Assembly: GCA_963751345.1 (NCBI GenBank)
Contig: CAVVUS010000024.1
Location: 103,918 to 167,917 of the forward strand
Reading direction: 5' to 3'
DNA: 64,000 nucleotides
Source of the DNA: an uncultured Chloroflexia bacterium
GTDB lineage: Bacteria; Chloroflexota; Anaerolineae; B4-G1; SLSP01
Part shown: positions 6,855-21,391 of the stretch, in pieces
How positions within the stretch are numbered: position 1 is the stretch's first letter
How the letters are laid out: every line of letters begins with the position of its first letter
Notes under the pieces: model-generated
The model's database searches: none
What the model was told of the DNA's origin: nothing
What the model saw: the letters and a program-made list of their open reading frames with translations, nothing else
Translations under genes and position numbers: made by a program

Positions 6855-8153
6855 TCAGAACAACGCGAACGCCCGCGGATCGACGGCACCTGCCTGGTGC
6901 ACGAGCATCGCGTTCATCAGCTCGACGGCCATGCGTGACTCCAACGTAATCCCCGCGCGCACGCCCACGCAGGGATCGTGGCGGCCCTTCTTAAGCCGGA
7001 ACTCGATCTCCTCCAGGTCCTTACGTACGGAGAGTTGTGGTTTCTGGATGGAAGATGTAGGTTTGAAGGTCACGCGACACACAAGGGGCATGCCGGTGGT
7101 GATCCCACCCAGAAGCCCGCCGTGATGGTTCGACTGAAATCCAGCGGCCCTGATAGCATCGTTGTTCTCACTGCCGCGTCGGTCCGCCACCGCAAACCCG
7201 GCCCCTACCTCGCACGCCTCCGCCGCGTTGAGCCCACCGAGGGCCCCCATCAGCCGCAGCTTGAGGCTCTGGTAGAGCGGCGTACCAGCCAGCGGCGGCA
7301 CGTTGACGGCCACGACCTCCACCACGGACCCGATCGAATCATCCTCGGCGCGAACCTGCTCGATCAGATCGCCGGCTTGCTGGGCAAATGCAGGATCAAG
7401 GCTCGGGATCGCAGCCTCAGTCAAGATGCGTTCGAGCTCGTGGAGCCGGGCGCCGGGTACCGGCGTCCTCTGCGTATGGTCAAGGACCAACCTTTCGACC
7501 TCTTCAGCGAGGGTGCGGGAGGACTTGAGAGAACCGACCTGGAGCACCGAGGAGAGAAAGACCGTTTGGAAGTGTGTTTCCAGAAAAATCCGCGCCACGG
7601 CGCCGCCAATAACGTCCGAGATCGTCGCACGGTAACTCGCCCGGCCTCCACCACGGGGGTCCGCAGTTCCGCGCGACTGGTAATACTTGAGGAGGTCGGC
7701 GTGGCCCGGCCTGACCTCACCCGCCGAGCCGGTGAACTGTGCATAGTCAGCCGAGCGCTTCGAGGAGGAGAGCACCACAGCAGCGATCGGCTCGCCTGTC
7801 GTGGTGCCCTCCTCATATGTGCGTGCTCCCGCAACTTCAGCCGGTGCGATCAGCTCCGCTTCGCCCTCTGGTGGGAGGCTGGGAAAGTAGGGCTCTGAGA
7901 CAAGCCCGGGTCCCGCTAACAAGCGCTCCAGGTCGTCATCGTACAGCCCTGAGAGCAGCAAGACCTGGTCCACCTCGCTCCTGGAGGTGCCGTAGCGGCT
8001 GCCGCCCGGCCGTCGCCGGTCCAAATAGCGCTGGATCTCACGACGCGTAAGACGGAGTCCTGCCGGGCAGCCAAAGACGATCGTCGTATAAGCAGGCCCG
8101 TGCGACTCACCCGCGCCCGCCACGCCAAAGAGCGGCCCTCCAAGGATTTCCAT
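6855..8153 (-). CDS. aroC: Chorismate synthase (divergent, with insertions)
   Basis: 'GESHG', 'RRPG', 'RPGHAD', 'GGRAS.R', 'GGITTG', 'FKPTSSI', 'GRHDPCV'. Confidence 0.92.
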   Translation of the reverse strand: MEILGGPLFGVAGAGESHGPAYTTIVFGCPAGLRLTRREIQRYLDRRRPGGSRYGTSRSEVDQVLLLSGLYDDDLERLLAGPGLVSEPYFPSLPPEGEAELIAPAEVAGARTYEEGTTTGEPIAAVVLSSSKRSADYAQFTGSAGEVRPGHADLLKYYQSRGTADPRGGGRASYRATISDVIGGAVARIFLETHFQTVFLSSVLQVGSLKSSRTLAEEVERLVLDHTQRTPVPGARLHELERILTEAAIPSLDPAFAQQAGDLIEQVRAEDDSIGSVVEVVAVNVPPLAGTPLYQSLKLRLMGALGGLNAAEACEVGAGFAVADRRGSENNDAIRAAGFQSNHHGGLLGGITTGMPLVCRVTFKPTSSIQKPQLSVRKDLEEIEFRLKKGRHDPCVGVRAGITLESRMAVELMNAMLVHQAGAVDPRAFALF

Positions 8154-8156
8154 AGT

Positions 8157-9482
8157 CTATGCCACAAGACGAACGAGATGGTACTGCTTCTTTCCCCGCC
8201 GCAGGACGACATACCGCCCCTCAAAGGCATCGGAGACCGTCAGGCTTCGATCGCTATCAGAGACCTGTACGTTGTTGACGTAGACCCCGCCATTGCTCAG
8301 GAGCCGCCGCGCCTCTCCCTTCGAGCGGGTGAGGCCAAGCTCATCAAAGAGATCGACGACAGAGAGGCCGGCGCCCTCCAAGCGAGACGTCGCGAGGTCA
8401 CTCGATGGCACGTCGGCAAAGATATCGGAGATGTCTTGGGCGTCGAGTCCCGCGATTTCGCCACCGAAGAGCACCTGCGAGGCCTGCTCAGCCTTTGCCA
8501 GGGCCGTCTCGCCATGGGTGAGCCGCGTCATCTCCTGCGCAAGCGTCCGCTGTGCCTCTCGCCTCTCCGGGTGCTCTGCCAGCTTGGTTTCGAACTCGGC
8601 AATCTCCGCCTGATCCAGCCACGTGAAGTATTTCAGGTAGGGGATCACATCGTCATCGCCCTGGTTGAGCCAGAATTGGTAGTAGCGGTAGGGTGAGGTC
8701 TTCTCGGCGTCCAGCCAGATCGTGCCGCGCTCCGTCTTTCCGAGCTTGTTGCCGTCGGCACCGGTCACCAATGGGTAGACGAGGCCATAGGCCCGTGTCC
8801 CACGCGTCCGCCGGATCAACTCGACCCCCGCGGTGATATTTCCCCACTGGTCGCTGCCGCCGGCCTGCAGGGTACAGCGATGACGGTCGTAGAGCTGCTG
8901 GAAATCGTAGGCTTGCAGCAGCATGTAGCTGAACTCGGTGTAGGAGATGCCCTCCTCACGCTGCAGTCGCGTCTTGACCGAGTCCTTGGCCGTCATGTAG
9001 TTGACGGTGAAGTGTTTGCCCACATCGCGCAGGAACTCCATCATCGAGATCTCAAGGAGCCAGTCGGCGTTGTTGACGATCCGCGCCGCATTATCCTTGG
9101 CCTCAAAATTCAGGAAGCGCGCTAACTGTCCCTTAATGGCCTCCACATTGGCCTGGACCTCGGCAGCTGTCATCAACTGTCGCTCGTTGGCCTTACCGCT
9201 TGGATCGCCGATCATGCCCGTACCGCCACCTGCCACCGCGATCGGCGTGTGCCCGAAACGCTGCAGCCGGGCCAGCCCCATCAGTGCCAGTAAGTTGCCG
9301 ACCTGCAGGCTGTCGGACGTTGGATCGAAGCCAATATAAACGGTGACCTTTTCCGATGCCAAGACCTCCGGCAGGCCTTCGGTGAAGTCGTAGACCAATC
9401 CTCGCCACCTGAACTCATCAAACACGCCCTGCGTGAGCACCGTTTCACCTGTCATGGGTCTCCCTTCGCTCTTGTCTGCCAT
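8157..9482 (-). CDS. tyrS: Tyrosyl-tRNA synthetase
   Basis: '[15 protein letters not shown]', 'IGDPSGK', 'GGSDQWGNI', 'KLGKT', C-terminal S4 domain; start may be 9455. Confidence 0.96.
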
Positions 9483-10490: not shown

Positions 10491-11913
10491 GGCGCAGCTC
10501 CGCCCCCAGCATCGTCATCGTCTCCGCGAAGCCAGGGAACGAGTCCGGGATACATTCGGCTCCCATGACCTTCGTCTTCCCCCTCGCAATCAGTCCCGCG
10601 ACGACCAGGGCCATACCCAAACGGTGATCTCCTTGGCTGTCCACTTCGGCGCCCTGCAGCCGCGTCGGCCCTGCCACGACAAAGCCATCCGGCCGAGGTT
10701 CGATCTCAGCCCCTAGCTTGCGGAGCTCCATCACTACCGAAGCAATCCGATCGGTCTCCTTCACGCGCAGCTCCGCCGCGTCGCGGACCACCGTCGTGCC
10801 CTCTGCCTGGGTGGCCAAAACGGCAAGGATTGGGAACTCATCGATCATCCTCACCACGATATCCCCACTCACCTCGGCGGCCATAAGGCCGGAAGCGCTC
10901 GCCGTCACGTCCGCGACGGGCTCCCCGCCCTGTTCGCGTACGTTGTCCACGGTCACGTCGGCTCCCATCGAAAGCAGGACCTCCAACAGACCGGTACGAG
11001 TTCGGTTGACCCCGACCCCCAGGAGGGTCACCCTGGCACTTGGGATACACAGTGCGGCAGCCAGCAGGAACGCCGCGGAAGAGAAATCACCCGGGACGAC
11101 CCAGGTCAACGCCCGCAGATAATCGATGGCCCCAGGATCAAGCCTGGCGGTGACGGCATCGAACGCTATCGCCAAGGTGCTCGCTCCGCCCTCCGAGGAA
11201 ACCGCCGCCAGTCTGCCGGCGCTGGATGAGGATCTCTCGCCGGTCTGCCTGAGCGCGATCTGCGCCATCAGCATCCGCTCGGTGTGATCCCGAGCCGGGC
11301 CCGGAAGCAGTACGTTGACCGGCCCATCGGCATACAACCCGGCGAGCAGAATCGCGCTCTTGACCTGGGCGCTTGCCACCGGCAGCACGTGATCGGAGCC
11401 CCTCAGGGGGCCCCGTCCCCGGATGAGCAGCGGAGCGTGACCCTCCGTGTCCGTGATGTCGGCGCCCATCTGCCTCAGCGGCTCCGTGATGCGACGCATC
11501 GGCCGGCGCAGCAACTGGGACTCCCCTGTAAGCTCGGAGTCAAAGGACTGCCCTGCCAGGATGCCCGAGAGCAGGCGCATCGTCGTCCCGGAGCGCCGGC
11601 AGTTGAGTGGACGATCGGGCGCCACCAGACCATGGAGCCCGCGCCCTTTGATCTGCAGGCGTGGGCCATATCCGGGCGTCGCCACGGCGCCGACCGAGGG
11701 CCGATCTACTTGAGCCCCCAACTGCCGGACGCAGTCCAGCGTTGCCAGGCAGTCTCCGGAAGGCAGAAACCCCTCGACGACGCTCGTCCCATCGGCCAGG
11801 GCAGCAAGCATCAGTGCGCGATGGGAGATCGACTTGTCTCCCGGCACCGAGACCGTCCCCTCCAGCGTTGCGGACCCGCTAGCGCCGAATCCCTGAACGA
11901 TCAGCCAAGTCAT
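10480..11913 (-). CDS. aroA: EPSP synthase
   Basis: 'PGDKSISHR', 'SGTTMR', 'SAQVKS', 'ELRVKETDR', 'DHR'. Confidence 0.96.
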   Translation of the reverse strand: MTWLIVQGFGASGSATLEGTVSVPGDKSISHRALMLAALADGTSVVEGFLPSGDCLATLDCVRQLGAQVDRPSVGAVATPGYGPRLQIKGRGLHGLVAPDRPLNCRRSGTTMRLLSGILAGQSFDSELTGESQLLRRPMRRITEPLRQMGADITDTEGHAPLLIRGRGPLRGSDHVLPVASAQVKSAILLAGLYADGPVNVLLPGPARDHTERMLMAQIALRQTGERSSSSAGRLAAVSSEGGASTLAIAFDAVTARLDPGAIDYLRALTWVVPGDFSSAAFLLAAALCIPSARVTLLGVGVNRTRTGLLEVLLSMGADVTVDNVREQGGEPVADVTASASGLMAAEVSGDIVVRMIDEFPILAVLATQAEGTTVVRDAAELRVKETDRIASVVMELRKLGAEIEPRPDGFVVAGPTRLQGAEVDSQGDHRLGMALVVAGLIARGKTKVMGAECIPDSFPGFAETMTMLGAELRHGE

Positions 11914-12784
11914 GGGAACATCTCCTTGCGCGTGTCCCTGATATAGGACAGCGTCTCACGCAGCGCGGCTTCATCTCCATCCTCAACCAACTGGATAAGA
12001 CGTCCCAACTCGGCGGCGCAATGTCGCGCGGCCTTCACGACCTCGTCGCGGTTTGTCGTGAGGATATCGACCATCATCGTGACGTCGCTGCCTGCCACGC
12101 GCGACGTGTCGCGATACCCCCCTGCGACGATCTGCCAGGCCAGGGGATCGGTCGATGTTGTGGCATCCGCCGTGCTCACGAGCGCGCAGGCAAGTAGGTA
12201 GGGGAGATGGCTCACCGTACCCACGAGATAGTCCTGACGCTCGCCGTCGATGACCAGTGGGGTTGCTCCCGCGCTCCGCACCAGGGCTTCCCCCAGACTC
12301 AACGCTGCCTCCGACGTCCGAGGAAGCGGAGACAGGATGAACGTGCGGCTCTGAAAGAGCGTCGGATCCGCAGCTTCGATACCTGAGGTCTCCTTGCCAC
12401 ACATCGGGTGCCCACCCAGGGGCTGTACGTGATCGGGTAAGCCGTCATCGCCTCAAGAACCTTCTCCTTGGTGCTGCCCAGATCGAGAAGGAGCGAACCC
12501 TCTCGCAGCCACGGGCCTATCTCGCCCAGCAGCCTGATAATCGTGCGGACCGGCGTCGCCAGAATCGTAATATCGGCCTCCGCGACCCCTTCCTTCAGGT
12601 CCAGCACGCCACGATCGACAAAGCCCCGGCGCAAGGCGGCCTCCAGGGTCTCAGGGCTGCTGTCTACACCGATAACCTGTGCACAGTGACCACGCAGCGC
12701 GCCCGCCAAAGAGCCGCCCATCAAACCAAGGCCCACAACCGTGACCACAGACTGTGAAAGAGGTTTCATCTCCAACGACGCCAT
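11910..12784 (-). CDS. tyrA: Prephenate dehydrogenase, frameshift near 12440
   Basis: 'GLGLMGGS', 'DLGSTK' in one frame; 'GGHPMCGKE', 'SHLP', '[10 protein letters not shown]' in the next. Confidence 0.9.
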
Positions 12785-12797
12785 ATCTGTCGCCGCC

Positions 12798-13812
12798 CTA
12801 TATCTTTCGTCCGACAGCAGCGGCTATCGGCCGGAGCGAATCCATGAGTTCGGCGAAACGTTCCAGCTTGAGAGACTGCCCTCCGTCCGAGAGCGCCTCC
12901 TCTGGCCGCGGATGGACCTCGATAATCAGGCCATCCGCACCAGCCGCGATGGCTGCCCGCGCGACCGGACTTACCAACTCCCAGTGTCCGGTCCCGTGGC
13001 TCGGATCGACAAGGACGGGTAGATGGCTGAGCTGCTTAAGCAAAGGTATCGCACTGATGTCCAGCGTATTGCGTGTGTAGGGCTCAAAGGTCCGGATGCC
13101 TCGCTCGCAGAGAATCACGCGATTGTTGCCGTGTGACAGGATGTACTCCGCCGACATCAACAACTCCTCGATCGTCGACATCATGCCCCGCTTCAAGAGG
13201 ACGGGGCGCTGAGACTCACCCACGGCGTGCAACAGTGCATAGTTCTGCATACTCCGCGCGCCAATCTGCAGGATGTCGGCGTAGGTCGTGACCAGCGGCA
13301 CCTGTTCGGGAGACATCACCTCTGTCACTATCGGAAGGCCGGTAGCCTCTCTTGCCTCGGCGAGCAGCTTGAGTCCTGTTTCACCGAGACCCTGGAAACT
13401 GTAAGGAGATGTGCGAGGCTTGAACGCCCCCCCGCGTATTGCGTGAGCGCCGGCAGCCTTCACCGCTTCTGCGGTTTCCATGAGCTGGCTCGGCACTCTC
13501 GACAGCACAGGGACCAGCCATCACGATCACTTGCTCACCACCGATAGAAACGCCGTTGATCGGGAAAACGGAGTTCTGCGGATGGAATTCACGACTGGCC
13601 AACTTGAAGGGCCGCAGTACCGGAACGGTGCGCTCCACACCCGACATACGGTCGATCTGCTCGTGATCGATCGGGCGCCCATTGCCAATGACACCGATAA
13701 TCGTGCGCTCCTCGCCTTCGGAAAGATGGACCTGGCATCCCATCTGCTCCACGCGAGCCGAAACGTTGGCGATCTGTGCCGCCGTTGCTCCGTGCTTCAT
13801 AATGATAATCAT
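12798..13812 (-). CDS. aroF: DAHP synthase class I-beta with N-terminal regulatory domain, frameshift near 13490
   Basis: 'MIIIMK...RTIIGVIG...AGPCAVES' then '[15 protein letters not shown]', 'IGARSMQN', 'ERGIRTF', 'DPSH'. Confidence 0.93.
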
Positions 13813-15335: not shown

Positions 15336-15728
15336 TCACCCGCTAACGCGCTGCAGGGCCTCCAGCGCGGACGTCAGGGCATCACCCATTGTGCGCAACA
15401 TCGTTTCCCGCGTCTTCAGCGCTTGGGTGACCATCGACTGGTGAATGTCCCACACGGCGCGATCGACCTGATCGTTGTTGTCAACGGGCAGACAGACCGT
15501 CGTGTCGCAGTCGAAATCCACGCGCGTGTACGCCCGCAGTCGCAGTTTGTCGGCGAGCCCGGGATCCAAAAGGTTCAATCCACCATCTGCTAGCATCTTG
15601 ATCTGCGCGCTGGGCGTGGTGAAGGTCCGGACCTCCAACGTACTGATGTCGCTCACAAATGTCTCCGCCTTAGATGCCAGATCTTTGGTGAACTTCTCAA
15701 TTGCGTTTCTCAGATCGCTCTCAGCCAT
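15336..15728 (-). CDS. Hypothetical protein, stand-alone 'domain X' (130 aa)
   Basis: Strong RBS GAGGAGG; visibly homologous to the C-terminus of 16633-19090. Confidence 0.85.
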   Translation of the reverse strand: MAESDLRNAIEKFTKDLASKAETFVSDISTLEVRTFTTPSAQIKMLADGGLNLLDPGLADKLRLRAYTRVDFDCDTTVCLPVDNNDQVDRAVWDIHQSMVTQALKTRETMLRTMGDALTSALEALQRVSG

Positions 15729-15790
15729 TCCTATCCTCCTCATGGATCCTTCGAGAATACGTATGCATCCTCAAGGCAACGGATACCGCT

Positions 15791-16636
15791 CTAGCCGGTC
15801 AGCACACCATCCGGCAAGTGCTCGAACTCGGACAACACGTCGCGGACGTATTTGTACACCGCAGGAATTAACAATATCTGCCCTCCCGGCACGGATGCCT
15901 TGAGTGCCAGGTCTAGCGCCCCGGTGGTCACAACTGAGATCAGTCGCAGTAACGCTCGACGGGACGCCAACGCCAGCTTCACGTCTTCCAGATGGAGCGC
16001 CATATCGAGAGCCGTCAGCCCGATCGACCAAGCCGTCTCGTAATCGCCGGTCCAGTCCACGGTGGTGATCGCAATCAGCTTATCGTCGATCCGCGTCTCA
16101 ACACGGGCCCAATGCTCCACAAGCTGGCGGAGCTGCGTAAGAAGCGCGCTTGTCGCCTCGATCCGCCCGACCTGTAAGGCGAGCTGACCATACGGCTTCA
16201 CCTGTTGAGCCTCTCCAGAGAAGGCTGTCACGGACCCGGCCAGCGCGGTGACCTCGGCGAGCAGCTCACCATCGTGTCGCAGAACGACCTGTCCGCCGTA
16301 GGAGGCCACCGGGCTCAGAGCGCCCAGATGCTGCGAGATGAGGTCCAACTCCTTCATCCGTCGATCAACGATCGCCAGTTGATCGTGCAATACCCGCCGG
16401 GTCTCTCTTGTGGCAGCCGGATGGCGCACCCGCCACACCATCCCATCGAGAGGACCGTCAGCCGCGTAAGCTGCTGGCTCCTCGGGTACAAATGCCGTCC
16501 CGGGCGCGTCCGCCGTCCGAGGCGCGTCCGCCGTCTGAGACGCGTCCGCCGTCCCAGGCGCCAGGTCCCACACACCCAGTGGGTCCTGACCGTCAGGCAG
16601 CGCGAATCCCGACCAGTCGTACGTCGATGCACTCAT
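15791..16636 (-). CDS. Hypothetical protein with divergent domain X and hydrophobic C-terminal hairpin
   Basis: 281 aa; start overlaps the upstream stop (ATGA); 'IAITTVDWTGD...ALHLEDVKLALASRRALL' matches the domain X pattern. Confidence 0.8.
   Translation of the reverse strand: MSASTYDWSGFALPDGQDPLGVWDLAPGTADASQTADAPRTADAPGTAFVPEEPAAYAADGPLDGMVWRVRHPAATRETRRVLHDQLAIVDRRMKELDLISQHLGALSPVASYGGQVVLRHDGELLAEVTALAGSVTAFSGEAQQVKPYGQLALQVGRIEATSALLTQLRQLVEHWARVETRIDDKLIAITTVDWTGDYETAWSIGLTALDMALHLEDVKLALASRRALLRLISVVTTGALDLALKASVPGGQILLIPAVYKYVRDVLSEFEHLPDGVLTG
16503..16556 (-). repeat. 3 x 18-bp in-frame tandem repeat (TADAxx)
   Basis: ggcgcgtccgccgtccga / ggcgcgtccgccgtctga / gacgcgtccgccgtccca. 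Confidence 0.85.
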
Positions 16637-19090
16637 GCCGAACCGATCTTCAGACTATCGAGGAGACGCGTCGCGAGTTCCGCCATCGTAGCCAAGAACT
16701 TAGATCGGCTGTCCTGGGCCTCCTCAACCATCGATTTGTGGATCTCCCATAGAGCGATATCGACCTCGCGGTCGCTGTTCTCGGGCACGTAGACCTCAAG
16801 GTCGCCGTCAAATGCCACCCGCGTGAGCGCGCGAAGCGTAGCAGGGTAATCCGCATGCGTCTCCAGGGCTGCCGCTACCCGTTCGATATCGTCGGTCGAG
16901 TAGGTTTTGACATCCAACGTCACAATATCCTCGGCTGCGTGACCCAGCGAAGTCGCCAACTGATCGGTAAAGGCACGCAGCGAATCCCTCAGCCTCTCAA
17001 ACTGATCCGCCAACCCAAAGGCCACAGCGACCTCAGCGTCGGACATCGCCGCGATCCCCGACACGGAAGGGCCAGGCTCCCGCGACTTGGGCTTGAGTTC
17101 AGCCTCCGCCCATGGTCGAGCGGCGCGGTCCACAGGCGCCGTCACGATAGGAACCTGGCCTTGCTCACTAACCGACGTCTCCATAGCTTCAGGAGCGTAG
17201 ACTTCAGCTTCCGATGGCTCAGCCGCGGGGATCGGGGGCGGCACGGGATAAGCCGCGTCTTGAGTCACCAGCTCCGGCACTACGAGAGATGGACCGCCCT
17301 GGAACTCCTCCGTCGAGGTGGCTGTCTCTTCCTCCTCGGGAGACACCGGCTGCTCCCGGCTCACTTGCTCCTCCGCTCCCTCGACTTCCGGCTCCACCGG
17401 CTCCTCGTCCTCAGCGGGCACCTCCGGGTGCCTCGGGTTCAGGCACCGTGATCGTGCCGGCGTCGGGACCCTCCTCAGACGGCGGTTCGGGAGGCGCAAA
17501 GGGAATGCGTGCCGCCGGGTCTCCTATGACCACATAGCTTCGGGCATCGTTGTTGGCCGTCCATCGATTGGCAAGCTCATAGTCGTCCATATAGCCGGGA
17601 TCCCACTTTAGCTCCTCGAGATCAGCACTCAGATCGGAGCTCAACTCGGCGTAGCGCATATCGAAACTGGTGTCGGTCGCGAGCCCGACCGGCTCGCCGT
17701 TCATCAGCATGCGCATCGCGGTGACAAACGACTGGTTTGTCATGCGCCCGGTTGGGGAGATGAAAGAGTAACCCCACGCCCGCTCCACGTGCCCCAGCAC
17801 GGCCAAGGCGCCCTGTCTGAGCATCTGCTGCGGTAGTGCAGCCGTGAACCCCCGCGGGGCAATCTTCTCCCTTACCTTGAAGGCCTGCGCTGCGAACTGA
17901 TCTAGTTGCGGCGTACCCGCGCCATAGCAGGCGAAGAAGAACGCCATCATGCCCAACAAGTCAGCATCTTCGGCGATGTCCTCGCCGGCGAAGTAGTAGT
18001 CTCTCAGGACGTCTCGACCAACACCCGGCCAATCCTGGCACAACAAAGCGCCCTGTTGCCGCAACTGTGCCGGATGTCCGGCAGGAAACTCAATCCCGTG
18101 GCTGGCACTGAAGAGCAGCGCCGGCGTCTGCGCAGGGTCACCGCCAAGGAGCTGTGTGAGTTGGTCGTGTGTGGCCAGGCCCTCACCCATATAGGGCGGG
18201 TGGATATCCCAATCATCCACCAACCCAAGCTCGAAATCCCGGGCCGCTATCGTGAGATTCTCGTACAGGGGCTGGACCAGATACTGCGAACTCAACTTGG
18301 TCGCCTTGTCCCCCGGATTCTCCGGGGCGAAGAAGGCAGCGCGCCTCGGGAGGGCGATCTGTCCCGTCTCACACGCGACGACGTTCTGCGCATACCGGGC
18401 ATACGCCTCGATGTCGGTCCCGAAATCCAGGCGGCCCACCCCACGCATCACGTCGATTTGGTACTGGAAACGGTAGGGTATCTCCTCGGGCGTGCCGATC
18501 AGGAGCACGTAGAATGGCATCTCCTGGGGGTCGACCAGTCCCGGCCCGACGCCGAGACGCTCGAACACCTGATCCTTACGCTCGCCGGCCCGGTACGCGT
18601 CCCCCCCCTCGTACATGCGAAAGAGATCCCCAGCCTGTTCATGTCGCAGGTCTAGCAGCGGCTGAAGCGCATCCTTGATCTCCTCCCGCACCCGCGGGTG
18701 CATGTCGGCGGGGAACATCACGGCCCACCCCACATCCTCCACGCGCGAGGGATCACCGGCCCCGGGCTTGACCGGATAGGGCGTGCGTGTCGCCGCCTTG
18801 AATCTCAGTTCCTCAAGGCGGACGGCGTCGTGCGACTCCTCAAGTGCAGACTGGACATCTGTGACCCGGGTCAGACGGTCCTCGAGGCCGGTGAGCTCTG
18901 CAAGCTGCCGCTGTCGATCGACGAATTCGCGGTAGTCCTGAGGAATAGGCTTCCCCTGGATGAGCCGCGCCAACTGCTGCGGTGAAAGCGGTGGCTGTCC
19001 ATAGTTGCCAGTGACAGCATTGATCCCGTTGAAGACCAAGCGAGAGGGCTCGTCATCCTCTTCAGGAAGCGCTCTCAACTTATCGGCCAT
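16633..19090 (-). CDS. Gingipain/C25-like (clan CD) cysteine protease + acidic Pro-rich linker + domain X (~818 aa after correcting an extra base near 17425)
   Basis: 'YVLLIG.PEEIP...DV..GVGRL', 'LLFSASHG' (His 18098-18100), 'FFFACYGAG' (Cys 17927-17929), 'YVVIGDP'. 'VPEPEAP' continues as 'EVPAEDEE' in the adjacent frame. Confidence 0.75.
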
Positions 19091-19125: not shown

Positions 19126-21391
19126 TTACGCCTGTTCCGTCGTACTACCGAGGCGGACCACAGGGACGCCACGAAGGCGTACCGCTGGGTCACCGACGAC
19201 AATGTAGCCTCGGGCGTCGTTGTTTGCCGTCCACAGCTCGGCGAGCCTGATACACATCCTCCACCGATGGGGGATCCCCAATCTGATCGTAGAGATAGGT
19301 CAGCTCGGTGGCAATCGCAGCATAGCGCATATTCATGAAATCCAGCGCAGACCCTACCGGGTGGCCGGCAAGCAGTCGTTCGATCACACTCGCAAAGACC
19401 TCAACGTGCTCACGCTTCCGGCCTTCCATCCCCCCGGGCCGGCTGGTGACATCAGTGAGGAAGGAGAGACCCCAGGCGCGCTCCACGTGCCCGATCACGG
19501 CCAATGCCCCGTGGTCCTTGAGTGCCAGTATCGCCTTCGGAAGCGCCGCAACGAATGGGTTCTCGGCAATCGACGTCGCCCGCTCCTTGAACTCAGCTCG
19601 GTGATAGGCATCAGTCTGCGGGGTGCCCGCACCGAAGCACGCAAAGAAGAAGAGGATCATTCCCCTGAGGTTGACAGCTTCGGTGACGTCCGATGCCGAA
19701 AGGTAGGCCTCCGGCGGGACGTAGCCCTTGCGGCCACTCCAGTTTTGGCAGAGAAGCGATCCCTGCAGATTCCGCTGTCGTGGATCATCCGGCGCAAACT
19801 CCAAGCCGTGCGTCGCCGTAAAAAGCAGCGCCGGCGGGGGCGTCAACTGGAGGATCTTCAGGAGGTTCGCCTTCGTCGCCTTGGCCGGGGCAATTCGTAG
19901 GATCTGCCAAGGGGACCCCACTGCCCTTGCCCTGAAATGCTGAGCAAGCGGCGCAATCAGATGGTCGGACGTCAGCGCCGTGGCCTCATCTCCAGGGTGT
20001 TCCGTCCCAAAGAAGACGACCTGGGAGTTAGGTGTCGCTGCCGCCGCTGATTCCTCCTCAACAGATACAACGTTCAGCGCATAGTTCCGGTAAGCCGTCA
20101 GATCATCGCCAAAATCCAGACGGCCTACCGCGTATTGAACGTCCAATTGGTACTGGAAGCTGAACGGGATGTCGTTTGGGTCGCCCACCAGCAACAAATA
20201 GTAGGGGACGCCTGTGGCGCGTGGATCTGCCGGGTTTGCCGCGTCGGCATTGCGTGGTGGGCGCCTCAGAAACATGCTGGCAGTATCACCGGAACGGTAG
20301 CCGTGCCGTCCCGCATAAACGCGGTAGAGGACACCGGCCTGGCGCTGGCGCAACGCCAAGAGCGGAGCCAGGGCCTTCTGGATGATCTGGCAGTGATCCT
20401 CCGGCATCGAGGCAGAGAAAACGATGCCCCAGCCGGTCTGCCCGATCTGCATAGGATCCACCCAGGGGACCGTGCCCAACTGCCCGGTCACGCTGCGCCT
20501 CAGCTCGTCGAGCCACGCACGCATCGCATCGATAAAGTCGGACTGGCGTAGAGGCTGCCTGGCGCGTCGAAGCGCCGTTAACACGCTGCGGAGCCCGGCG
20601 ACGATCTCGTGCCACGAGTCGAACGCATCCGCCCTCGACAGCGCCGCCAGCCGCTCGCGCGGTTCGGACGCCGAGGGCCGTCCCTCGCTCCGCAGACCCC
20701 CAAGCGTTCCGAGCACATAGACCAACATCCGGAGCGGCCCGGCAATTGCATCGGTGCCCGGCAAGACCTTGAGGGACTCCACCGGCAGCTCGTCCAGGGC
20801 CCAACAGAACTCGTCGATCCACGGCGAACGCAGGACGCCCTGCTTGTCCAGAGGACCTGTCGCACCCTCGCTTAGGTACGTCTTCCGAACCGCGGCCAAT
20901 GCCTGATCAAATCGCGATTCGAGCGTGCTGCGGAGCGTCGCCGAATTGGCATTCTCCTGGTCAAGCAACCATTGTGCGAGCGCAGCACCCTGCCCTCCAT
21001 TGAGCAACCTGACGATGCGGACGAGGGTGTCCACCGGCTCTTGCTTGAGCTTGCTTGCCAGCACAGCGACATCCCCGGCGAGGGGTTTGCCCTGCCCGCC
21101 TAAGAGGATCGACAAAAGACGGTGGGCACTGTCTACGTACCAGACATTGCGCGGGCGAAGCTGCCCGCCCAGTAACTTGAGAATATCCTGTGCCAGGAAC
21201 TCGACAATTGAGAGGATCTTCCGCTCGCTAGTCGCCCGAACCATCAGTTCCCGCTGCAACTCACGAAGCTGGCGGGCGGTGTCATAGCGGTCGGTCAAGA
21301 CGTGATCGGCGAGGGTCTCGACCGTCATAGGCTGGAGCCCATACGCGCCTGTCACGCCGTTGACGCCGTTGAAGTAGAGTTTCTCGGTCAC
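19126..21391 (-). CDS. Second gingipain/C25-like cysteine protease with a large helical N-terminal insert, frameshift near 19246
   Basis: GTG start with RBS; '[12 protein letters not shown]...AVGRL', 'LLFTATHG', 'FFFACFGAG', 'GHVERAWG'. Corrected end '[24 protein letters not shown]...QA*' (TAA 19126-19128). Confidence 0.78.

Follow-up and report, generated by a model that had tools for sequence, protein, structure and literature searches.

The window analysed here, a stretch of 64,000 nucleotides from an uncultured Chloroflexia bacterium (GenBank assembly GCA_963751345.1, contig CAVVUS010000024.1), carries five minus-strand open reading frames (ORFs) between its aromatic amino-acid genes and nusA. 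They encode two large C25-like peptidase paralogues, a 'middle' protein, a small protein and a short peptidase tail in a frame of its own, and scans of all five against Pfam, NCBIfam and PADLOC gave no meaningful match. At the centre of this locus stands a previously unnamed domain, here given the working name Domain X (DomX), with which the second peptidase ends, of which the small protein consists and of which the middle protein in all likelihood carries a divergent copy. The features are as follows, with models from AlphaFold2 (AF2) graded by the predicted local distance difference test (pLDDT) and profile evidence from hhalign and hidden Markov models (HMMs).

19190-21391, minus strand: ORF of 733 aa, first C25-like peptidase paralogue, no Domain X
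17411-19090, minus strand: ORF of 559 aa, body of the second C25-like (clan CD) cysteine peptidase, dyad H331-G332 / A387-C388
17426-17428, minus strand: site of the frame break, reading CCC on the minus strand against CC in the close relative G002 and parting the peptidase ORF from Domain X
17023-17425, minus strand: low-complexity Pro/Glu/Ala-rich linker from peptidase body to Domain X, seen in translation, of variable length among relatives
16633-17499, minus strand: ORF of 288 aa in another frame, overlapping ORF 17411-19090 by 89 nt
16636-17022, minus strand: C-terminal Domain X of the second C25-like peptidase, in this window within the separate ORF 16633-17499
15791-16636, minus strand: middle protein, 281 aa (family alignment; AF2 model, pLDDT 80.1)
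15899-16234, minus strand: probable divergent third Domain X, residues ~135-246 of the middle protein (hhalign, HMM cross-matches, secondary structure)
15827-15961, minus strand: hydrophobic helix-PGG-helix hairpin, residues ~226-270 of the middle protein
15339-15728, minus strand: stand-alone Domain X protein, 130 aa from M6 of ORF 15336-15743 (135 aa); stop codon at 15336-15338

Two of the copies are recognizable by pairwise comparison. BLASTP aligns the small protein with residues 170-284 of ORF 16633-17499 at 35% identity over 126 columns (E 1e-18), Domain X forming the last ~125 residues of that ORF, and the 5.4-Mb genome holds no match besides the small protein and the tail of the 288-aa ORF. 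Because 38 of the 51 homologues of the small protein have a length of 130 aa, its true start is probably M6, which gives it that same length; every one of the 51 is unnamed or 'hypothetical'. Across 41 aligned DomX sequences the residues T35, A66, D75, P81, H96, V100, A103 and R107 (small-protein numbering) are invariant, and the last four, spaced i, i+4, i+7 and i+11, lie on one face of a single helix.

Structure prediction gives these residues a common frame. In the AF2 model of the small protein (pLDDT 88.3) a helix (residues 3-28) is followed by a strand (30-37), an insert with two short helices, two further strands (63-71 and 76-79) and a long helix (90-129), and the model of the middle protein repeats the order with a helix at 149-174, strands at 177-183, 186-193 and 199-203, and a helix at 209-246. 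Domain X is accordingly modelled as an unannotated alpha+beta domain of ~115-125 residues composed of a helix, three strands and a long helix, the topology that an original prediction made from the letters alone had proposed and with which both models agree.

The copy in the middle protein lies below the reach of pairwise comparison, BLASTP against the other two copies giving nothing significant (E 2.1 and 3.5). Profile comparison of the 41 DomX sequences (alignment A1) with 20 middle proteins (A2) by hhalign yields a probability of 63.5% (E 6.8e-5, 59 columns) and pairs T-x-V-x-x-x-G-D and H-x3-V-x2-A-x3-R across the two families, the same pairing that the original prediction had reached by hand. 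With shorter Chloroflexaceae-type small proteins and their middle proteins added, these broader alignments link the third copy to the others at 90.6% (E 1.3e-6) over 96 columns of ~22% identity, taking in the first helix and the first strand ('VET' opposite 'LEVRT') and setting the 25-residue insert of the small protein against a tight turn in the middle protein. Against the 35.8 and 45.8 observed, alignments run in reverse reach 16.6-18.2 and unrelated small control families 13.5-16.0, and none of 100 column, 100 block and 80 further block shuffles (n = 280) exceeds the two observed scores, the shuffled maximum being 21.8. Single sequences of either family match the HMM of the other at E 1.6e-5 to 1.2e-3 (within small local ORF sets), and T191, G197, H215, A222 and R226 are conserved across the middle family. 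In the '-M first' mode of hhalign, alignment A5 reaches 81-92% against the middle family (A7), and the protease tails alone (A6) reach 36-85%; '-norealign' scores of ~155-167 were disregarded, as an unrelated YbaB control attained 99.4% over 18 columns in the same mode. That the third copy is non-homologous, its helix-hairpin-helix resemblance convergent and the copies thus only two, is very unlikely: the blindness of BLASTP to the link, the 63.5% of the first profile comparison and the 36% of the protease tails in one direction speak for it, but the distance from shuffled, reversed and unrelated controls, the rise in probability over nearly the whole domain with more diverse members, the reciprocal HMM matches and the equal conserved residues and element order all speak against it. 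The threefold repetition claimed by the original prediction, whose quoted peptide strings are all present in the minus-strand translations where it had placed them, is borne out for two copies by BLASTP and, at up to 90.6%, for the third by hhalign.

The copy on the peptidase calls for a different reading of the apparent gene layout. Compared with G002 (96% identical), the run at 17426-17428 holds one extra C, which shifts the frame within the Pro/Glu-rich linker; in all 20 loci of relatives, a single ORF of 604-936 aa holds both the C25-like body and Domain X, and of the 33 other genomes that gave a match, 30 have their best one within a 608-939-aa open frame. The annotation of the window is corrected in this respect, its apparently stand-alone 288-aa ORF being the detached tail of the peptidase gene. 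The description of this copy as the C-terminus of the protease thus holds for the 20 relatives' loci and fails for the window itself, where Domain X sits in an overlapping ORF of another frame, a break that had been overlooked.

The first C25-like peptidase is likewise interrupted, by a one-base insertion near 19249 relative to G002, through which it loses its conserved C-terminal end (24 letters); the canonical end is found in ORF 19126-19281. One independent contig (run X3), ~98% identical, is without the extra base at 19248, and no contig examined from the sequencing runs bridges 17428. Further along the window the genes for prephenate dehydrogenase (overlapping ORFs 12299-12784 and 11910-12404) and DAHP synthase (overlapping ORFs 13381-13812 and 12798-13508) are split as well, in both cases by single-base indels relative to G002 (sites 12440, 12697 and 13489), a pattern that points to many indel errors in this assembly. 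Because these nearby housekeeping genes are also broken by indels, we take the frame breaks of both peptidase genes to be very probably assembly errors. A decaying pseudogene cluster, in which both breaks would be real mutations, is unlikely: both peptidase ORFs are indeed broken relative to G002 (17428 and 19249) and no examined contig spans 17428, but the three indels break housekeeping genes within 7 kb, the independent contig does without the base at 19248, and both downstream frames are still open and conserved.

Beyond the window, Domain X is a terminal module fused to exchangeable enzymes. A profile search of 1.84 billion representatives returned 847 proteins at E <= 1e-3, 415 of them at E <= 1e-10, and in each of the best 150 of these 847 matches the domain ends at most 20 residues from the C-terminus. 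Ninety of these 150 have a C25-like body, 35 consist of the domain only and 25 have other N-terminal parts, many mid-length matches being 5'-truncated peptidase fragments. A shared-word search for homologues among longer proteins had yielded no fused forms; the profile search found them, and the listing of fused partners that the original prediction had suggested comprises C25-like, CHAT and C39_2-like plus SH3_3 bodies, as in P0163, where a CHAT domain (PF12770, E 2e-11) is joined to Domain X, and P0180, where a C39_2-like peptidase and SH3_3 are.

The remainder of the module accompanies these fusions with little change. In 19 of 20 loci from organisms of the same taxonomic family and order, middle and small genes follow the peptidase-Domain X gene, such that a second Domain X gene lies two genes downstream of the peptidase with the divergent copy between them; the order peptidase, middle, small recurs in eight loci of two other families, and every complete locus examined co-encodes two further DomX proteins besides the peptidase. 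In a Chloroflexaceae metagenome-assembled genome (MAG; locus L141), two C25-like genes without Domain X precede genes for a CHAT-Domain X fusion, a middle and a small protein, and in three Anaerolineaceae/Anaerolinea MAGs (L142-L144) a gene for a C39-like peptidase with SH3 and Domain X is followed by middle and small genes, with no C25 gene. Since these loci keep the rest of the module, the Domain X trio is the constant part and the enzyme the variable one, drawn from three unrelated types of thiol peptidase. At positions 2294-5852 of L141 the adaptor-free C25-like paralogues stand directly upstream of the CHAT-Domain X gene; such paralogues accompany the module even where a different peptidase bears the adaptor.

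Matches occur in 34 of 61 sampled relatives, namely in all 21 genomes of the genus and in 30/36, 3/12 and 0/12 genomes of three families, and 31 of these 34 genomes have exactly two. A phylum-wide sample gave matches in 18 of 301 genomes, 14 of the 18 from one family, which includes complete single-contig genomes (G291, G323) and in which the module has one peptidase only. The flanking genes vary between lineages and are mostly housekeeping genes; L142 alone has a MoxR/DUF58 pair, encoded on the other strand ~1 kb downstream.

The two large proteins of the window are 38% identical paralogues that, by sequence, are distant gingipain-type C25, clan CD peptidases. Language-model (Atlas) neighbours of the second are Peptidase_C25 clusters (0.98), PF01364 is detected at E <= 1 in 13 of 23 aligned family members (best 1.9e-6), and several matches fused to Domain X exceed the 23-bit cut-off of that model (P0172, for example, at 38.4 bits); the window's own two peptidases have no Pfam match at E <= 1. 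The residues H331, G332, A387 and C388, invariant in all 23 aligned peptidases, correspond to the catalytic H-G ... A-C dyad common to C25 enzymes and follow one another in the order known from the caspase-like fold. Whereas gingipains are secreted, the peptidases of the window display no visible signal peptide when their N-termini are inspected by eye, and they differ further in a distinct conserved N-terminal motif, FNG-x-N-x-x-T-G-x-Y-G. At both N-termini (19000-19090 and 21300-21391) the fuller form reads (L/V)-(Y/V)-F-N-G-(I/V)-N-x-x-T-G-x-Y-G, with N21, G22 and G28 invariant in 23 sequences, and in the first peptidase ~300 extra, mostly helical residues come after it. A second C25 ORF is present in 14 of the 20 relatives' loci.

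The middle protein, whose 31 homologues have no Pfam domain and no informative name, combines its divergent Domain X with two further long helices, a loop at residues ~29-62 that is both variable and disordered (pLDDT < 50), and a motif conserved near the N-terminus (F-x-x-S-G ... D-P-L-G-x-W). Absent from the other two copies is a conserved helix-PGG-helix hairpin that extends the long Domain X helix (helices 209-246 and 252-271), a hydrophobic element that the original prediction, in describing the third copy, had passed over. The maximum Kyte-Doolittle mean over 19 residues is 1.3-2.3 in 26 middle proteins versus 0.4-1.1 in six small proteins sampled, values that for the hairpin range from borderline to clearly membrane-like, and the middle protein may associate with membranes.

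A three-chain prediction of the protease tail and the middle protein, with the small protein as partner, scored 0.52 against 0.14 for the best of three controls, with at least 71% of contacts agreeing between runs and a partner pLDDT of at least 64. The mark for this score had been calibrated on 80 solved complexes, of which 58 attained it, and on 110 mismatched pairs, of which two did. The model lends weak support to binding of the small protein within a complex. In the 0.14 control the middle protein was replaced and the protease Domain X kept; because the score collapsed in this way, the modelled partner of the small protein would be the middle protein rather than the protease tail.

On these grounds we somewhat favour a reading in which Domain X is an assembly module that joins peptidase, middle protein and small protein, the middle protein acting as a platform that may lie at the membrane, and the small protein as a co-subunit or decoy. 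A thiol peptidase, taken to be cytoplasmic, bears Domain X at its C-terminal end behind a flexible linker; the three copies would associate with one another, and this association would tether the peptidase to the middle protein of 240-300 aa, which would sit at the membrane or insert into it through its hairpin. The Domain-X-only protein would be a third subunit or, like CARD-only proteins, a competing decoy that regulates the tethering. The original prediction had proposed an adaptor that recruits the protease to an oligomer of the small protein: the terminal position in 150 of 150 matches, the fusion to three peptidase types and the co-encoding of the paralogues agree with an adaptor, whereas the small protein is modelled on the middle protein and not on the protease tail.

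Several observations weigh against the assembly reading. The complex score falls in a band where a pass is more often wrong unless the guess was likely beforehand, as at scores of 0.60 or below the mark was reached by just seven of the 80 solved complexes along with both of the passing mismatches. The hydrophobicity of the hairpin is borderline in many members (1.3-1.6), and AF2 packs the hairpin onto the protein. All three paralogue families retain Thr, Asp, His and Arg with little or no variation, which is unusual for a pure adaptor. No NTPase (nucleoside triphosphatase), vWA or STAND gene was found within the module in 20 loci or as belonging to it among the flanks; the operon stands among housekeeping genes and is seemingly vertically inherited (21/21 genomes of the genus), with no mobile defence island indicated. 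Finally, the peptidase gene is frame-broken in the window, so that this particular copy might be inactive.

We weighed the assembly module against other functions for the domain. Domain X might instead be a regulatory or substrate module that in cis auto-inhibits the peptidase or is removed from it, the middle and small proteins being substrates or pseudo-substrate inhibitors and cleavage in the disordered loop of the middle protein releasing an active, possibly membrane-active fragment. The long flexible linker before the peptidase's Domain X, the intact peptidase dyad, the hydrophobic hairpin and the variable low-confidence loop (29-62) between conserved elements of the middle protein would suit such a scheme, but the three copies have no cleavage-site motif in common, and one trio serving three peptidase families of presumably different specificity fits docking better. 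We regard this alternative, which is compatible with an adaptor role, as improbable.

The conserved polar residues bear on another alternative, in which Domain X is a small sensor or enzyme whose Thr/Asp/His/Arg serve in catalysis or in the binding of a metal, a nucleotide or another ligand, and whose paralogues have diversified without being partners. T35, D75, H96 and R107 are invariant in the 41 DomX sequences, their counterparts T191, G197-D, H215 and R226 vary little or not at all among middle proteins despite a profile identity of ~22%, and published effector-associated domains (EADs) are described as devoid of enzymatic features (PMC7159879). This constellation may mark a ligand-binding or catalytic site; the spacing i, i+4, i+7, i+11 with invariant Ala and Val also fits a packing face. 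Domain X has, however, no likeness to any enzyme or ligand-binding family or fold, its H96/V100/A103/R107 with invariant small residues on one helix face form a typical packing surface, and it is found in every case at a terminus and together with its paralogues, so that a sensor or enzyme appears quite unlikely. As speculative, in our estimate, is a self-contained, protease-armed membrane-attack or cell-fate switch in filamentous multicellular bacteria, with gasdermin-like logic, an unrelated fold and a new homotypic domain as its wiring: the middle protein would be a latent effector able to insert into membranes, its hairpin hidden beneath its N-terminal cap and the Domain-X-only protein until the thiol peptidase of the given lineage, docked through Domain X, cut the disordered loop and freed the hairpin into the membrane.

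Searches for an identity of Domain X among known families and folds were largely empty. No Pfam, NCBIfam or PADLOC family corresponds to Domain X. Foldseek found no match in the PDB for the models of the small and middle proteins at E <= 1e-3; a wide VIA-align search with the small model against 48,161 chains gave generic helical hairpins only (Z <= 7.7), and an Atlas neighbour search with the small protein gave no usable match. A profile of the peptidase family searched against PDB sequences gave rows at chance level (E ~1), PtuA over the DomX part among them.

The closest candidate in architecture is YbaB/EbfC (PF02575), whose order of elements (helix, three strands, helix) is similar to that of Domain X and whose members are dimers. 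It furnishes the best Foldseek match, a weak one (1pug, E 0.48, template-modelling (TM) score 0.33/0.42, the latter target-normalised; 1ybx, TM 0.45), and no YbaB structure is in the top 50 of the wide VIA-align search. We rejected the relationship at profile level, where hhalign gives 0.4% against 21 YbaB sequences and Pfam gives no match. Trypco1 (PF19493) was also rejected: one of the 41 DomX sequences matches it at E 0.052, hhalign gives 0.9% against 24 sequences, and the order of its elements is another.

In its logic, the module resembles systems in which one small domain is placed on an effector and on its partner. In bacterial EADs a small terminal domain occurs on an effector, often a peptidase of the caspase superfamily, and on the product of a neighbouring gene, homotypic recruitment being the proposed role, and a few of these domains (EAD4, 5 and 10) are alpha+beta (Kaur, Burroughs, Iyer and Aravind, eLife 2020, PMC7159879, and eLife 2021, PMC8195603). 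Domain X shares with EADs a small terminal domain of no known enzymatic family, a copy on the effector with related copies in adjacent genes, and an exchangeable fused effector, its variety (thiol peptidases only) being narrower than that of EAD1/2. EADs are coupled to a MoxR-vWA, GAP1-type GTPase or STAND core, whereas the Domain X operon has neither such a core nor, within it or beside it, any other NTPase, vWA or sensor core that would trigger assembly. Domain X further differs in its three copies per three-gene module, one with a hydrophobic hairpin, and in its invariant polar residues. Among the matches listed (25/30 families) for the 41 DomX sequences at E <= 10 there is no EAD-named Pfam family; Pfam, we assume, holds EAD models.

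The animal death-fold adaptors (CARD, DD, DED, PYD) and caspases follow the same logic, one domain being shared by a clan-CD peptidase, an adaptor and a protein that consists of the domain alone. The likeness to death-fold adaptor/caspase pairs drawn by the original prediction is apt as an analogy of logic and does not extend to structure: death-fold domains are bundles of six helices, Domain X is modelled as a helix, three strands and a long helix, and the two have no sequence relation. Membership in the death fold was rejected on the AF2 model, which has three beta strands between two long helices.

A literature search returned nothing on this system, the source-data lists of the EAD papers, which might name Domain X, lying outside its reach. 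The principle itself is not new. Neither Pfam, NCBIfam, PADLOC and the PDB nor the literature searched yielded the domain, its fold or a three-gene module that lacks an NTPase and exchanges its thiol peptidase. What the analysis delineates is a domain family so far without annotation, represented by 847 clusters at E <= 1e-3, and a compact three-gene module in which one putative interaction domain is placed on a clan-CD or papain-like peptidase and on two partners. Bacterial conflict systems built around an NTPase and the death-fold signalling of animals already place a single adaptor on both effector and partner; the present module would carry this principle over to a new fold of the alpha+beta kind and to a setting that has no NTPase. 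As the module is present in complete single-contig Chloroflexota genomes (G291, G323), the predictions of binding, membrane association and processing are directly testable.

A few loci depart from the usual layout. Two orphan Domain-X-like ORFs of 126 and 141 aa (E ~1e-11 against the DomX HMM), at 3951-4331 of L077 (G235) and 5679-6104 of L078 (G286), have no peptidase or middle gene nearby; the former, a candidate gene that overlaps an ORF on the opposite strand, has as neighbours a large WD40 protein and an AAA+/vWA fusion of MoxR-like type. In L041 (G039:C22) a peptidase-Domain X gene is followed by neither a middle nor a small gene within 2.9 kb downstream, and the small Domain X gene of that genome lies on another contig (C109:1120-1482), a layout that reflects either a split module or a misassembly. 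In L030 (G036), finally, two tandem small Domain X genes (7484-7900 and 7786-8265) follow the middle gene, the second being more divergent, with 32% identity to the window's small protein.

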